Of a stretch of 64,000 nt of DNA, positions 9,046 to 62,666 are shown piece by piece. The stretch is taken from the NCBI GenBank assembly GCA_018302545.1, contig JAGVZM010000002.1, positions 2,198-66,197 of the forward strand. The letters run 5' to 3'. The translations under genes and the position numbers were made by a program. Origin of the DNA: Candidatus Woesearchaeota archaeon (GTDB lineage: Archaea > Nanobdellota > Nanobdellia > SCGC-AAA011-G17 > GW2011-AR18). Numbering within the stretch: the first letter of the stretch is position 1; each line of letters opens with the position of its first letter. The notes beneath the pieces are model-generated. The model was given only the letters and a program-made list of their open reading frames with translations, did not search any database and was not told where the DNA came from.

Positions 9046-9169
9046 GGGCCTGTAGCTTAACCTGGGAAAGTACACGACTGAAGCTCGTGTTATTGTGACT
9101 GATTAACAGGAATTGTTAGTTGGCAATAAGGTTCAAATGAGCTTGTCTCTGAAATTCCCACCGGGCCCA
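9046..9169 (+). tRNA. tRNA-Phe (anticodon GAA) with two predicted introns in the T-arm (9098..9129 at 51/52; about 9139..9156 at 60/61)
   Basis: acceptor GGGCCTG/CGGGCCC, D-arm GCTT-AACCTGGGA-AAGT, anticodon arm CACGA-CTGAAGC-TCGTG; splicing yields T-arm GTGGG-TTCAAAT-CCCAC; both inserts flanked by 4-bp central helices and 3-nt bulges (BHB). Confidence 0.55.
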
Positions 9170-9329
9170 GATTTTAATTTAAATCCAAAAATAAGATAAA
9201 ATACTTATATCCTACAAAAACATGAGGGTATCTCAACTTGCATTTAATTGTGAATATACTAGAAAGAATTCGGGAATATGGTGCAAATAAAAGAATAATC
9301 AAACTTAAAAAGAAATCAAAATCTAAAAA

Positions 9330-14141: not shown

Positions 14142-15557
14142 ATGAAAGTAATAGCTAGAGAGATAATCCAAAATAAAATATTATATGATTTAATATACAA
14201 AGAAAAGTATGACTTTAAAACAAAATTAAAGATTTTTTTGGGTAATCGTCCTTTCATTACAATATTAAAAAAACAAAGAGAAAGAAATAAACTTTATGAA
14301 GGAGAATTAGTTGTAGTAAGGATTAATAAAGAAAATAGAATATACGAATTCATAACAAAAATTAGGGAATGGGGAAAAATAAATATCCCCATTAAAATAA
14401 TTAAAGATTTATCAATAAAAAACAAAGAAAAATTAAAGATAGAATTAATTAAAAATAAAGAATTTAAAAACATAAACAGAGAAAACACTATAAATCTAAC
14501 GAACATAATAAGGTTTAATAAGAAGTTAGAGATTATAAATAGAAATGAAAAGTATATAACAATTTACAAAACAAGTTGTATACCAATTACAATTCCTAGA
14601 ATAATAAAGATAAATGAAGATTTGATAGAAGCAATTTATTTACTGCATGGAGATGGACATTATCAAAAAAAATTATATTTTTCAAACAAGAATTATGATC
14701 TACATAAATTTATAATAAACACTTTCAATAAACAATTATTTATTCCTAAAAAACTATGGAGATATAGAATTAACCACAATAAAAGAGAATTAATAGATAA
14801 AGCAAAAAATTTTTGGATAGAAAATTTAAAGGCAAATAAAAAGAGATTTTATGAAACAAGAAAATTAAGCAGTTTTAATACAGTAAAATATGGAAACTTA
14901 AGATCAATAATAGATAATACAATAGTTTCAGAAATATTCAATTATTTAATTCATAAAATCAAAATAGATAAAGAAAGACTAAGTTTAATTGCTTTAAATG
15001 GAATACTCTCAGCAGAGGGGAATGCTCAAATAGATAAAAAAGGTTTGCACAAAATAACAATTGCATATAACGAAGACGAGAAACAAATGTTCATTAATTT
15101 ATTAATAAAATCAAACCTAAAGAATTTCAAAATAGAACAGAATAAAAGGTTTTGTATTAGAAAATGGGAGCACCAATACAAATTCATCAAAAAATTTCTT
15201 TCAAATAATCTTATACCCTTCAATAAACATAGTGAGAGAAGATTAAACCTTATAATAGGTTTTCTAAATCATTCATACACAAGATCTGCAATAAAATATC
15301 TAGAGATATTAAAACAAGGAAAGAGTTATGAAGAGATAGCAAAAACATTAAATCATAGAAAGGATTCAGTTTTAGAGTTACTCAAAAAAGATAGATATAA
15401 AAAGTTTACTAAGAAAACAATTTCAGGTAAGATTAAGATAAATAAGAGAGGTAAAGAGTTTATAGAAATAACAGAAAAATTAAAAAACATGTTAAAAGAA
15501 ACAGAAAAAGAATATTTAGAGTACATAAAACCAATAAACAAATTCAAGGAGGAGTAA
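14142..15557 (+). CDS. free-standing LAGLIDADG homing-endonuclease-like protein (two motifs)
   Basis: motif 1 IYLLHGDGHY, motif 2 LNGILSAEGNA about 120 aa apart, each followed by the typical helix/sheet pattern; K/N-rich; C-terminal HTH-like segment. Confidence 0.5.
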   Translation: MKVIAREIIQNKILYDLIYKEKYDFKTKLKIFLGNRPFITILKKQRERNKLYEGELVVVRINKENRIYEFITKIREWGKINIPIKIIKDLSIKNKEKLKIELIKNKEFKNINRENTINLTNIIRFNKKLEIINRNEKYITIYKTSCIPITIPRIIKINEDLIEAIYLLHGDGHYQKKLYFSNKNYDLHKFIINTFNKQLFIPKKLWRYRINHNKRELIDKAKNFWIENLKANKKRFYETRKLSSFNTVKYGNLRSIIDNTIVSEIFNYLIHKIKIDKERLSLIALNGILSAEGNAQIDKKGLHKITIAYNEDEKQMFINLLIKSNLKNFKIEQNKRFCIRKWEHQYKFIKKFLSNNLIPFNKHSERRLNLIIGFLNHSYTRSAIKYLEILKQGKSYEEIAKTLNHRKDSVLELLKKDRYKKFTKKTISGKIKINKRGKEFIEITEKLKNMLKETEKEYLEYIKPINKFKEE

Positions 15558-16562
15558 ATGAAATTACCGTTTGAAGAAGAAAATAGAAAAATTTTAGTGA
15601 AGAAAGAAGCTTCCACAGATCCCAAATTTGGGAAAAAACCAGAAGAACGAACAGTAAGAGAACTGTTAGAGTCTTCGGTAATATGTTTAAACAAAGTAGA
15701 AGGTCCTTCTTCACACCAAGTAGCAGACTATGCAAAAAAAGCTCTAGAAGTAGAAAAAATCGGTCACGGCGGGACACTTGGAATCTTTTAAGATTAGTGA
15801 AATCCTGCAGTAACTGGGGTTCTACCTATATCTATAGGAAAAGCTACAAGAATAATGGAGGCTCTTCTAAAATCAGGAAAAGAATATATTTGTTTAATGC
15901 ACATACATACTAAAGTTCAACAATCAAAGATACACAAAGTAGCTAAACAATTCTTAGGAAAAATAACCCAAATGCCTCCTGTAAAGTCTGCAATTAAAAG
16001 ACAATTAAGACAAAGAGAAATTTATTACTTAGAAATCCTAGAAATAAAAGATCAAGATGTACTTTTCAAAGTAGGATGTCAAGCAGGAACCTACATAAGA
16101 ACACTCTGTGTTGGATTTGGAAAAGAATTAGGAACCAATGCGCACATGCAGCAATTGATAAGAACAAAGGCAGGACCATTTAATGACAAAGAATGGTATT
16201 CTCTACAAGACATAAAAGACGCATATCAATTATACAGAGAAGAAAAAGAAGAACAATTAAAGAAAATTCTAAAACCAATAGAGTTTGCCATACAACATTT
16301 ACCTAAAGTATGGGTAAATGATAATACTATAGATTCAATATGCCATGGCGCATCATTAAAAGTCCCAGGAATAATAAAAGTCCATTCAAAGATAGAAAAA
16401 GAAGAATTAGTAGCTATAATGACTTTAAAAGAAGAATTAGTTGCTTTAGGAACATCAAAGATGAATTCAGAAGAAATGATAAAAAATCAAAAAGGATTAG
16501 CAATAAAAACAACAAAAGTCTTTATGGATCGAAATACATACCCTAATTTTAAAAAAGCTTAA
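15558..16562 (+). CDS. cbf5: H/ACA RNP pseudouridine synthase Cbf5 (TruB family), interrupted by a 21-nt BHB intron at 15781..15801; spliced product about 327 aa
   Basis: exon 1 ends ...EVEKIGHGGTL + G; exon 2 supplies AT-CCT-GCA... giving [35 protein letters not shown]; colinear with Cbf5 through the C-terminal PUA domain. Confidence 0.8.
15781..15801 (+). other. predicted archaeal BHB (bulge-helix-bulge) pre-mRNA intron in cbf5
   Basis: GAATCTTTTAAGATTAGTGAA holds TAA, TAG and TGA in frame; exon CACT pairs intron AGTG (4-bp central helix); 3-nt bulges TG|G and AA|A; 6-bp outer helices GCGGGA/TCCTGC and AATCTT/AAGATT. Confidence 0.75.
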
Positions 16563-32089: not shown

Positions 32090-33397
32090 TTAATGACGGT
32101 TTGATTTCTTCTTAACATTACTAGAAGCCATTTTAAGCATTTTTAAAGCATAATTAACAGGATTCTTGCATTTACTACAAATACCGTCATCACATTTAAT
32201 GCTCATAGTTTTATAATAACTAGGGTTATCACAATTAGGAGGCAAAACCAATTTCTTCTGCCTTTTAAACCAACTTATCTGAGCCTTAACATAACCTTCT
32301 CTTAAAGGTTCAGCATTTCTTTTATTCCACTCAAGCATAAACTTCTCTATATCTTCTAGATTCCAACCAACATTTTGTAAAAAGTTAACTAAAATAAAAA
32401 TGCCTCTCTTCCTTCCATCTTCCTCTACGCCTTGCATTAATTTTAAAATACAAGGAGGAAAATAATCAACCTTTATTGGAACCTTAGGAGCCTCAAACTT
32501 TCTAGTAATTGTTATTTGTTTCTCTTCAATATAATTAGTTTTTCTAGCCCAATCAAAAGCTTGTATCAACAAATTTTTAGCTTCATCCTTTTCAACATTC
32601 TCTGAATCTAAAAATTTCAATCCAAATTTGACATTATCTATCTTTGCCTGTCTAATGTCAAAATCCTTAATAGTCTTCAAAGGTATACTAACTAACCCAG
32701 ATTTTTCATTTATACTATAAGCACATCTAAACAAATGTCTACTAGATATTAAAACACTATCGATATCTACTAACTTAAAAGGATCCAATTTATTCTCTTT
32801 AATAACATCTTCAACTTTTTTTCCAACACTCTTAGCAGCATCTTCTACTGTATGAGTCTCTAAAATCTTAGCACTTAAATGTTCTTTAATCATATTCTTA
32901 AGATATTCAGAAATAACTCTCACACCATCAGGAAAATAATCTTTTATATTAACATTATTAACATTAGAAGGGAAAGCTTCAAAAGGAATACCAATATGGA
33001 ATCCACGATTACCTGAATATTTTATAGAAAAATTCTTAACATCATTAAACCTTAAAGCATCTTCTAAAAATTCAGCGCACATAATACTAAAGTTTAAATT
33101 TTTACTATCCAAATCCAAGATACAACTCCAACCAATCCTTAAGTTATCTAATTCTTTCTTACTCAAACCACTTTCAAGCATCATAGGATCTTTCCAAATT
33201 TCCTCACTAACATGAAAAGAAGTCATACCTTGTTTAACTAAATCATTAATATCTCCCTGAAAATTAACAATCTCTGGTCTTTTTCCCCTAATATCTCCAA
33301 ACCAAGCCTGAACCTCTCTATTTTGAGATAGTCTCATCAATTCTTTTTGAACTTCGTTTTGAGAATAATACTCTTTTATTTTTTTAAGATCAGACAT
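32090..33397 (-). CDS. priS: archaeo-eukaryotic DNA primase small-subunit (PriS)-like protein with C-terminal Cys-cluster extension
   Basis: AEP motifs ILDLDSKN (DxD) and YSGNRGFHIGIPF (SGxRGxH); C-terminal CDNPSYYKTMSIKCDDGICSKC. Confidence 0.55.
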   Translation of the reverse strand: MSDLKKIKEYYSQNEVQKELMRLSQNREVQAWFGDIRGKRPEIVNFQGDINDLVKQGMTSFHVSEEIWKDPMMLESGLSKKELDNLRIGWSCILDLDSKNLNFSIMCAEFLEDALRFNDVKNFSIKYSGNRGFHIGIPFEAFPSNVNNVNIKDYFPDGVRVISEYLKNMIKEHLSAKILETHTVEDAAKSVGKKVEDVIKENKLDPFKLVDIDSVLISSRHLFRCAYSINEKSGLVSIPLKTIKDFDIRQAKIDNVKFGLKFLDSENVEKDEAKNLLIQAFDWARKTNYIEEKQITITRKFEAPKVPIKVDYFPPCILKLMQGVEEDGRKRGIFILVNFLQNVGWNLEDIEKFMLEWNKRNAEPLREGYVKAQISWFKRQKKLVLPPNCDNPSYYKTMSIKCDDGICSKCKNPVNYALKMLKMASSNVKKKSNRH

Positions 33398-55093: not shown

Positions 55094-55202
55094 AGTCCCG
55101 TCGTCTAGATTAGTTTAAAAACTAAAGACAACGGCCCAGGATCGAGGACTCTGGATCAATAGGAGAAATCCTTGGACGGCAGTTCGAATCTGCCCGGGAC
55201 TA
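55094..55202 (+). tRNA. tRNA-Gln (anticodon CTG) with two predicted introns: D-loop (55109..55131, 23 nt) and canonical 37/38 (55155..55167, 13 nt)
   Basis: acceptor AGTCCCG/CGGGACT + A; T-arm GGCAG-TTCGAAT-CTGCC; anticodon arm GAGGA-CTCTGGA-TCCTT after splicing; D-stem strand GTCT pairs intronic AGAC mimic (central BHB helix) with 7-bp intron hairpin. Confidence 0.6.
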
Positions 55203-55337
55203 TTTTTCCAATAAATTTAAATAACTTTAGTCTTAATCTATTTTCATGAAAACATCAAAGCTAATACAAAATAAGTATTTTTTCTTAGCCATGCTTATGA
55301 TGTTCTAATAGCCTAAAATATTTAGGAGGCCATTGCA

Positions 55338-62373: not shown

Positions 62374-62455
62374 TTAACTAATTAAAGAAAAAAGATTTAA
62401 AAGCTATATTTGAATTTTTCCGAAAATATTTCAGAAAAGTTGTGAAGAACATAAA

Positions 62456-62580
62456 CGCCCTAGGCGGGACTCGAACCTGCGACCCCTTGATCTCTGCTCA
62501 GTAAGTAACAGTTTCACAGTCGTTATGTAGAACACAAGTGCTCTACCTGTTGCTCCCTAATAGGTCTGAGCTACTAGGGC
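62456..62580 (-). tRNA. 125-nt tRNA with two predicted introns (D-loop 62550..62565, 16 nt; anticodon region about 62492..62527, 36 nt); anticodon probably TCT (Arg), identity uncertain
   Basis: acceptor GCCCTAG/CTAGGGC + G, T-arm GCAGG-TTCGAGT-CCCGC (one A-C mismatch), D-stem GCTC/GAGC; D-loop intron has intronic GAGC mimic pairing GCTC plus 3-nt bulges; mature anticodon arm CTTGT-GTTCTAA-TCAAG. Confidence 0.55.
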
Positions 62581-62666
62581 GTCTAAGAATTAGGCAACTA
62601 AAATTCTTTAAAAGCTTTTCTAAGATAAAAAATAGAATAAAAAAGAGTAAAATTATAAATTAGAGT

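Follow-up and report, generated by a model that had tools for sequence, protein, structure and literature searches.

A probable bulge-helix-bulge intron within the catalytic aspartate codon of cbf5 in a Woesearchaeota-like archaeon

The DNA analysed here is a single stretch of 64,000 nucleotides, which we call the window. On its forward strand, the open reading frames 15558..15791 (77 aa) and 15855..16562 (235 aa) lie in a common reading frame, and both are parts of the pseudouridine synthase Cbf5. A first-pass annotation of the window had identified them as the N- and C-terminal parts of this protein, separated inside the motif GHGGTL|DP, and domain matches together with alignment bear this out. 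A Shine-Dalgarno-like GGAGGAG is found at 15548..15554 (+), 3 nt 5' of the cbf5 ATG at 15558; reading the sequence 5' of the ATG at 15855, with which the second ORF begins, we find no comparable motif.

Directly upstream of cbf5 lies an ORF of 471 aa (14142-15557, +), whose stop codon TAA (15555-15557) adjoins the cbf5 start codon, giving TAAATG, and which precedes cbf5 in all three of the other assemblies described below. GDG and AEG stretches give this ORF a LAGLIDADG-like look to the eye, but Pfam returns only a marginal PilZNR match and does not confirm the resemblance. The ORF has no confident Pfam family, and we claim no tie between it and the features of cbf5 discussed in this paper.

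The reading frame of cbf5 is interrupted between the first and second bases of the codon for its catalytic Asp by 21 nucleotides, GAATCTTTTAAGATTAGTGAA, at positions 15781..15801 (+). Read in frame, this insert gives G-I-F-TAA-D-TAG-TGA, and so the uninterrupted reading of the locus is ...GHGGTL-G-I-F-stop-D-stop-stop-N-P-A-V-T-G..., with three stops. When exactly these 21 bases are removed, as the first-pass annotation had proposed, G15780 is joined to A15802-T15803 to form GAT (Asp75), the motif GHGGTLDP is rebuilt, and the frame encodes a protein of 327 aa. A deletion moved by one base in either direction leaves Asn or Gly in place of Asp, so that the boundaries of the insert are unambiguous. 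We denote as exon 1 positions 15558..15780 (+), which hold codons 1-74 and the first base (G) of Asp75, covering DKCLD and the start of TruB_N in the alignment to the Cbf5 of known structure in the PDB; exon 2, positions 15802..16562 (+), runs from bases 2-3 of Asp75 to the stop codon and holds, by domain match and alignment, the rest of TruB_N, TruB_C_2 and PUA. The predicted spliced junction reads ...GGGACACUUG|AUCCUGCAGU... (that is, CACUUG|AUCCUG). The 327-aa protein that results carries the complete Cbf5 domain set (DKCLD, TruB_N, TruB_C_2 and PUA), and when it is aligned to homologues, a check suggested along with the original proposal, it matches Cbf5 of P. furiosus (3lwo) with E 2.6e-104 and without a gap over the junction.

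Archaeal introns of the bulge-helix-bulge (BHB) type are cleaved between the second and third nucleotides of each bulge (PMC2738675). Folding positions 15760-15820 with RNAfold, in the absence of any constraint, yields an hBHBh' motif as both the minimum free energy (MFE) structure and the centroid structure, at -19.5 kcal/mol (z = -3.35; none of 200 shuffles is as stable). The whole motif occupies 15769..15808 (+), and two of its helices, H and h, also covary over the 53 homologous junctions introduced below. In the MFE fold, the outer exon-exon helix h pairs 15769-15774 with 15803-15808 over 6 bp, one of them G-U; the central helix H pairs exonic CACU (15775-15778) with intronic AGUG (15796-15799) over 4 bp; the 5' bulge, UG|G, is formed by 15779-15781 and the 3' bulge, AA|A, by 15800-15802, each of 3 nt; and the inner helix h' pairs 15782-15786 with 15791-15795 over 5 bp, closing a loop of 4 nt (15787-15790). 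All of these elements lie on the forward strand. The fold, the central helix and the two bulges that carry the splice sites agree with what had been proposed from inspection of the sequence. The earlier description of two outer helices of 6 bp each is correct for the exon-exon helix and needs correction for the inner one, because a sixth pair there would leave a loop of only 2 nt. On both strands of the motif the deduced splice sites separate the second nucleotide of the bulge from the third, and no pair of cuts other than UG|G and AA|A restores both GAU (Asp) and GHGGTLDP. With its helices of 6, 4 and 5 bp and its bulges UGG and AAA, the fold has the architecture of an archaeal BHB intron.

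The fold by itself is weak evidence, since BHB-like motifs arise fairly commonly by chance in an AT-rich window. Over both strands we count 37 strict BHB-like motifs, versus 14-29 in block shuffles, an enrichment of roughly 1.5-2x. By comparison, a strict BHB motif would have a probability of only about 5e-6 of arising by chance with the one position and length from which the Asp codon is rebuilt, and the agreement between the fold and the boundaries that restore the frame counts as strong evidence. The case for an intron is therefore built upon position, frame restoration and covariation, rather than on the fold alone.

The 235-aa product is recorded on four contigs, of which we examined three (Logan SRR2090155, ENA ERZ27254754 and ENA ERZ27254845). 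In each of these three assemblies, which come from two pipelines, the 101 nt around the insert are identical to those of the window. One of them differs from the window by one SNP over 4156 bases, outside the region of the insert, and thus represents an independent sample of the population. An assembly or sequencing artefact, for which one can cite only the generic concern that attends any metagenomic contig and nothing specific to this site, is hard to reconcile with an insert that recurs identically in three assemblies, or with the homologous inserts found in unrelated metagenomes; we assign it a negligible probability.

The best protein matches to the spliced product are uninterrupted, full-length Cbf5 proteins of about 328 aa with 70-73% identity, and those with names belong to Candidatus Woesearchaeota or Nanoarchaeota. 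Combined with a G+C content of 29.2% across the window, these matches support the view, already put forward in the first-pass annotation, that the DNA derives from an AT-rich, DPANN-like genome. Because these closest relatives are uninterrupted, the intron is not universal in the window's group. More distant relatives do possess it: L126/L127, at 63% protein identity, carry the intron AAATCTAATTAGGTTAGTGAA, which like the window's is 21 nt long, is identical to it at 16 of 21 positions, and includes an A-to-G change that keeps a hairpin pair as U-G. L153, with 68% identity over exon 2, has an intron end that equals the last 14 bases of the window's intron (...TTAAGATTAGTGAA), and L063 and L169 have in common a 29-nt form that is different from the window's. 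The junctions of these relatives likewise fold as BHB motifs. In a rough neighbour-joining (NJ) tree of Cbf5, the intron-bearing members of the window's clade (the window itself, L126/L127, L169, L063, L181 and L130) are interleaved with the intron-less members L124, L136, L147, L125 and L129. The simplest reading of this crude tree suggests that the intron was ancestral to the clade and was then removed precisely on several occasions; the presence of a homologous intron in relatives at 63-68% identity, and its absence from the closest ones at 70-73%, likewise suggests recurrent precise loss. This pattern mirrors the loss that has been proposed for Desulfurococcales.

It is important to ask whether the gene is instead a pseudogene, with cbf5 inactivated by the insertion of 21 nt and the likeness to a BHB fold due to chance. 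In favour of this reading, the gene without splicing has three stops in frame and no catalytic Asp, folds resembling a BHB are not rare in the window, and cbf5 is uninterrupted in most of the closest relatives. Both exons, however, are otherwise intact and match Cbf5 from end to end, and a homologous intron has been kept between genes whose proteins are only about 63% identical, which points to long-term retention under selection. Furthermore, inserts occur at this one inter-nucleotide position in at least 64 other genes, whose central helix is kept by compensatory changes and in which the removal of every insert rebuilds GAY, as we describe in the following paragraphs. We consider inactivation very unlikely, and we retain the reading of the insert as an intron.

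The distribution of such inserts was surveyed with a DNA pattern consisting of conserved exon-1 codons, a gap of 13-43 nt, and ATCC, which recovers the window's own site. Scanned over species-representative genomes, the pattern produced at least 120 matches; these counts give no frequencies, and GC-rich lineages are under-sampled because the pattern demands a GAT Asp codon. Among the 120 matches listed, translation sorted out 67 as uninterrupted truB or cbf5 genes, many of them bacterial, which matched because the 3' exon was anchored by ATCC alone and a chance ATCC lay downstream. At least 53 of the matches listed are cbf5 genes with an insert of 13-37 nt at the G|AY junction of the Asp codon. 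Separately, among the 80 closest metagenomic relatives of the window's gene, 67 are intact and an intron occupies the site in 11; of the remaining two, L153 lies on a contig that begins inside the intron, and L149, which the motif filter had passed over, turned out to be intact when inspected. In total, the genome scan and the 80 relatives provide at least 64 further cbf5 genes with an intron of 13-37 nt at the Asp-codon site.

The taxon names of the intron-bearing loci are record labels, and all those that follow refer to the matches listed. By label, the intron is found in many Bathyarchaeia; in the known hosts Desulfurococcales, Sulfolobales and Caldisphaera; in Brockarchaeota, Nitrososphaera/Nitrososphaerota, Caldarchaeum, Pelearchaeum and Culexmicrobium; in six Woesearchaeota (L025, L042, L056, L063, L076 and L092); and in one record each of Nanoarchaeota (L079), Aenigmatarchaeota (L107), Jordarchaeum (L065) and 'Methanosarcinales' (L090). 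The last of these is a 5-kb contig (CAZIEE010000087.1) whose Cbf5 groups with the Woesearchaeota locus L025 in the NJ tree; it is probably mis-binned, and an occurrence of the intron in euryarchaea should therefore not be claimed from it. In the literature searched, which spanned DPANN, Woesearchaeota, Bathyarchaeota, Thaumarchaeota, Aigarchaeota and Asgard and left subscription journals mostly uncovered, there is no report of a cbf5 intron outside Crenarchaeota. Judging from the loci recovered here, the cbf5 intron is present in many more archaeal lineages than that literature describes, and this wide distribution is a more novel result than the single intron in the window.

Since the exonic halves of the BHB helices consist of conserved codons (GGN-GGN-ACN-YUN on one side and GAY-CCN on the other), it is their synonymous sites that are co-opted for structure. 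With the register fixed by the boundaries deduced from the protein, all four pairs of the central helix are formed in 51 of the 53 junctions among the matches listed, and when the junction elements are aligned without gaps, 99% of the central-helix cells are paired. The third base of the Thr73 codon and its partner in the intron appear as C-G in 33 junctions, U-A in 11, A-U in 2, G-C in 1 and U-G in 2; for the first base of Leu74 and its partner, the combinations are C-G (39) and U-A (9). Thus two of the four pairs have changed on both sides. The covariation score is 0.270, as compared with 0.158 ± 0.009 in shuffles (none of 500 reaches 0.270), and no slid register exceeds 0.136. These substitutions indicate that the central helix is conserved by compensatory change in the homologues.

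A similar preference is seen in the outer helix. The Gly72 codon, at 15771-15773 in the window, is GGG in 41 of the 53 intron-bearing genes among the matches listed, a choice that lengthens the helix and that is made in the window despite a genome of 29% GC. Within the window's clade, all intron-bearing members have GGG at Gly72; among the five intron-less members, four have GGT or GGA, and one (L124) has GGG. The synonymous site of Gly72 thus appears, from these comparisons of codons, to be under selection for the outer BHB helix. Together, the third base of Thr73, the first base of Leu74 and the third base of Gly72 offer a clean natural example of selection for RNA structure at synonymous sites.

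Regardless of lineage, the inserts block translation. Read-through is prevented in all 65 of them, the window's included: 43 shift the frame, 22 introduce in-frame stops, and none is open. Every insert is placed so that its removal rebuilds GAY, and once the insert is taken out, 60 of the 65 genes become ORFs of at least 300 codons. Three others are cut by the ends of their loci, while L042 and L170 stop early (at 216 and 277 codons) even after the Asp-codon intron has been removed; these two may contain a second interruption or may be decaying copies.

These results bear on a further possibility, namely that nothing is removed from the RNA and that Cbf5 is instead made as two assembling polypeptides of 77 aa and 235 aa, or by ribosomal bypass or read-through of the 21 nt. 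Split genes are known in Nanoarchaeota, and the second ORF does possess an ATG, at 15855. A protein begun there, however, would have Met93 as its first residue; residues 75-92, and with them the catalytic Asp and the DPxVTGVLP motif, would be missing, and its start codon lacks the Shine-Dalgarno-like sequence that precedes 15558. Read-through of the three stops, for its part, would insert seven extra residues and place Asn where Asp is required. Against this possibility there also stand the 43 of 65 inserts (again counting the window's) that shift the frame, and the covariation, which is indicative of an RNA structure and not of a protein or a ribosomal signal. We regard translation in two pieces, or across the insert, as extremely unlikely.

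The boundaries of the insert, its fold, its compensatory conservation, the barrier to read-through and the intact protein encoded once the insert is removed are matters of observation, and with these in hand we put at roughly 90% the probability that positions 15781-15801 are an archaeal BHB intron in the cbf5 pre-mRNA, spliced by the endonuclease pathway. According to this model, the transcript would fold locally, as the in silico structure and the covariation show, such that the outer helix forms between the codons of Gly71-Gly72-Thr73 and the third base of Asp75 with the codons of Pro76 and Ala77, the central helix joins the CACU of Thr73/Leu74 to the AGUG of the intron, and the intron closes upon itself as a hairpin of 5 bp. 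By crenarchaeal precedent, the splicing endonuclease EndA would recognise two 3-nt bulges placed 4 bp apart and would cut after G15780 and A15801. A ligase of the RtcB type would presumably then join the exons, remaking GAU (Asp75), and the 21-nt intron would be released, as in the crenarchaeal case and the general pathway. Translation of the spliced mRNA would give a protein of 327 aa, the catalytic subunit of the H/ACA pseudouridylation complex; from the unspliced mRNA only a fragment of 77 aa could be made, and it would lack the catalytic Asp. A strict hBHBh' such as this one should be acceptable even to an alpha4 endonuclease of narrow specificity. The intron itself would have been inherited within Woesearchaeales and precisely lost in several close relatives, at the same site that it occupies in Sulfolobales and Desulfurococcales.

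Introns in the pre-mRNA of cbf5 have been described in Aeropyrum pernix, Sulfolobus spp., and most Desulfurococcales and Sulfolobales (Watanabe 2002; Yoshinari 2006; Yokobori 2009 = PMC2738675), as the first-pass annotation had noted for some Crenarchaeota, and the published ones occupy the same codon position. Yokobori et al. reported BHB-dependent cleavage by the splicing endonuclease, confirmation by cDNA in several species, and lineage-specific loss (PMC2738675). The window's intron resembles them in gene, in its exact point between bases 1 and 2 of the catalytic Asp codon, in its BHB type with cleavage after the second nucleotide of each bulge, in being short and non-coding, and in a patchy distribution from which secondary losses are deduced. 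It differs in its host, a Woesearchaeota-like DPANN archaeon as opposed to a crenarchaeote, and in its strict hBHBh' form, whereas most crenarchaeal cbf5 introns have unconventional or relaxed BHB motifs that need a heteromeric (alpha-beta)2 endonuclease (PMC2738675). Moreover, splicing has been demonstrated experimentally for the crenarchaeal intron, while that of the window's is predicted. As regards common descent, site and phase are identical; the sequence that the window's intron has in common with the crenarchaeal ones is largely dictated by pairing with conserved exon bases, and clear homology of intron sequence is confined to Woesearchaeales (the window with L126 and L153; L063 with L169). 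On the basis of these likenesses, we assign the predicted intron to the known class of cbf5 Asp-codon BHB introns, in which a DPANN host is new.

Among spliced protein-coding genes of Archaea, the literature searched holds only cbf5 in Crenarchaeota and one haloarchaeal UTR. The latter is that of the Haloferax volcanii HVO_1309 mRNA, whose BHB intron is a substrate of EndA (PMC7714728); this intron lies in the 5' UTR and rebuilds no active-site residue, whereas that of cbf5 lies inside a codon. The BHB introns of archaeal tRNA and rRNA resemble the cbf5 intron in having two 3-nt bulges with a 4-bp helix between them, and presumably use the same enzymes (EndA, RtcB); in the canonical tRNA 37/38 intron, as in cbf5, bases of the 5' exon pair with the 3' part of the intron. 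Unlike these, the cbf5 substrate is an mRNA, and its junction must keep the reading frame. In the splicing of HAC1 and XBP1, which is regulatory and stress-induced, the cuts are made by Ire1, and ligation is performed by Trl1 for yeast HAC1 and by RtcB for metazoan XBP1. The parallel with cbf5 is one of functional analogy only, in that a protein enzyme cuts at paired structured sites in an mRNA and ligation changes the frame or product; the endonuclease (Ire1) and the RNA motif are different, and no homology is implied.

We also looked elsewhere in the window for signs of BHB splicing. Default ARAGORN and Rfam at its gathering score find one tRNA in the window. Intron-tolerant ARAGORN and systematic deletion add further tRNA candidates, whose anticodon identities are unreliable. 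One, at 62455-62581 (-), is called by intron-tolerant ARAGORN as Ser(tga) with a 28-nt intron, and is missed by both default ARAGORN and Rfam at the gathering score; its length of 127 nt suggests more than one intron. Another, at about 55094-55205 (+), lies in a GC-rich island and has a perfect acceptor stem (AGTCCCG...CGGGACT), a T-arm, and a weak match to the Rfam tRNA clan at 55127-55195. For ARAGORN to call a tRNA here, some 24 nt near 55102-55130 have to be taken out and an intron of 13 nt permitted in the anticodon loop; this candidate, whose anticodon identity is unreliable, probably contains two introns. At about 9046-9200 (+), a tRNA-Phe-like gene can be recognised only once 12 nt or about 30 nt have been removed, and this too may be an interrupted tRNA. 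The multi-intron tRNAs mentioned in the first-pass annotation are thus plausible as candidates for intron-containing tRNAs, and they lead us to expect BHB splicing machinery in the window's organism. The EndA gene itself is absent from the 64-kb window (phmmer, best score 7.6 bits, with a query validated on PDB 1A79 at E = 8e-111).

A strict BHB scan of both strands and a relaxed scan that merges frames turned up no convincing second mRNA intron in the window. None of the strict motifs other than that of cbf5 is tied to a disrupted gene, and the relaxed scan, in which two open frames are merged, was uninformative: nearly all of its approximately 150 matches are ordinary gene-gene junctions within operons. 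The suggestion that the window represents a lineage in which BHB splicing has expanded so as to act on mRNA is accordingly unneeded, as the cbf5 intron is common to many lineages and no second mRNA intron accompanies it. Apart from these questions, a 435-aa ORF at 32090-33397 (-) matches the Pfam families of both the small and the large primase subunit, and appears to encode a fused PriS-PriL primase.

One practical consequence concerns annotation. In the window, gene callers split the essential cbf5 gene into ORFs of 77 aa and 235 aa, and the same is to be expected wherever the intron occurs; for this reason, cbf5 may be counted as missing or broken in many metagenome-assembled genomes. The dozens of natural intron variants, in turn, provide material for the study of endonuclease specificity.

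The finding of a DPANN host at the identical codon phase, together with a dozen other lineages identified by label, reopens the questions of the age, gain and loss of archaeal mRNA introns. At its broadest, the evidence would admit a reading whose odds we judge to be about even: that the BHB intron in the Asp codon of cbf5, far from being peculiar to Sulfolobales and Desulfurococcales, is an mRNA intron found across the archaeal domain, which is under selection, both in the intron and at synonymous bases of the exons, and which has been precisely lost many times. By label, such a reading would encompass Bathyarchaeia, Nitrososphaeria/Caldarchaeales, Brockarchaeota, Methanomethylicia/Culexarchaeia, DPANN (Woesearchaeales, other Nanoarchaeota and Aenigmatarchaeota) and, on the strength of the contig labelled Jordarchaeum, possibly Asgard. 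Two histories are then raised. The intron may be very ancient and repeatedly lost, or it may be able to spread repeatedly to the same site, in which case the self-complementary codons of the GGTLDP motif (GGN-GGN-A...U-CCN) may have favoured its gain. If the domain-wide reading is true, no protein-coding intron known in prokaryotes would be more widespread.
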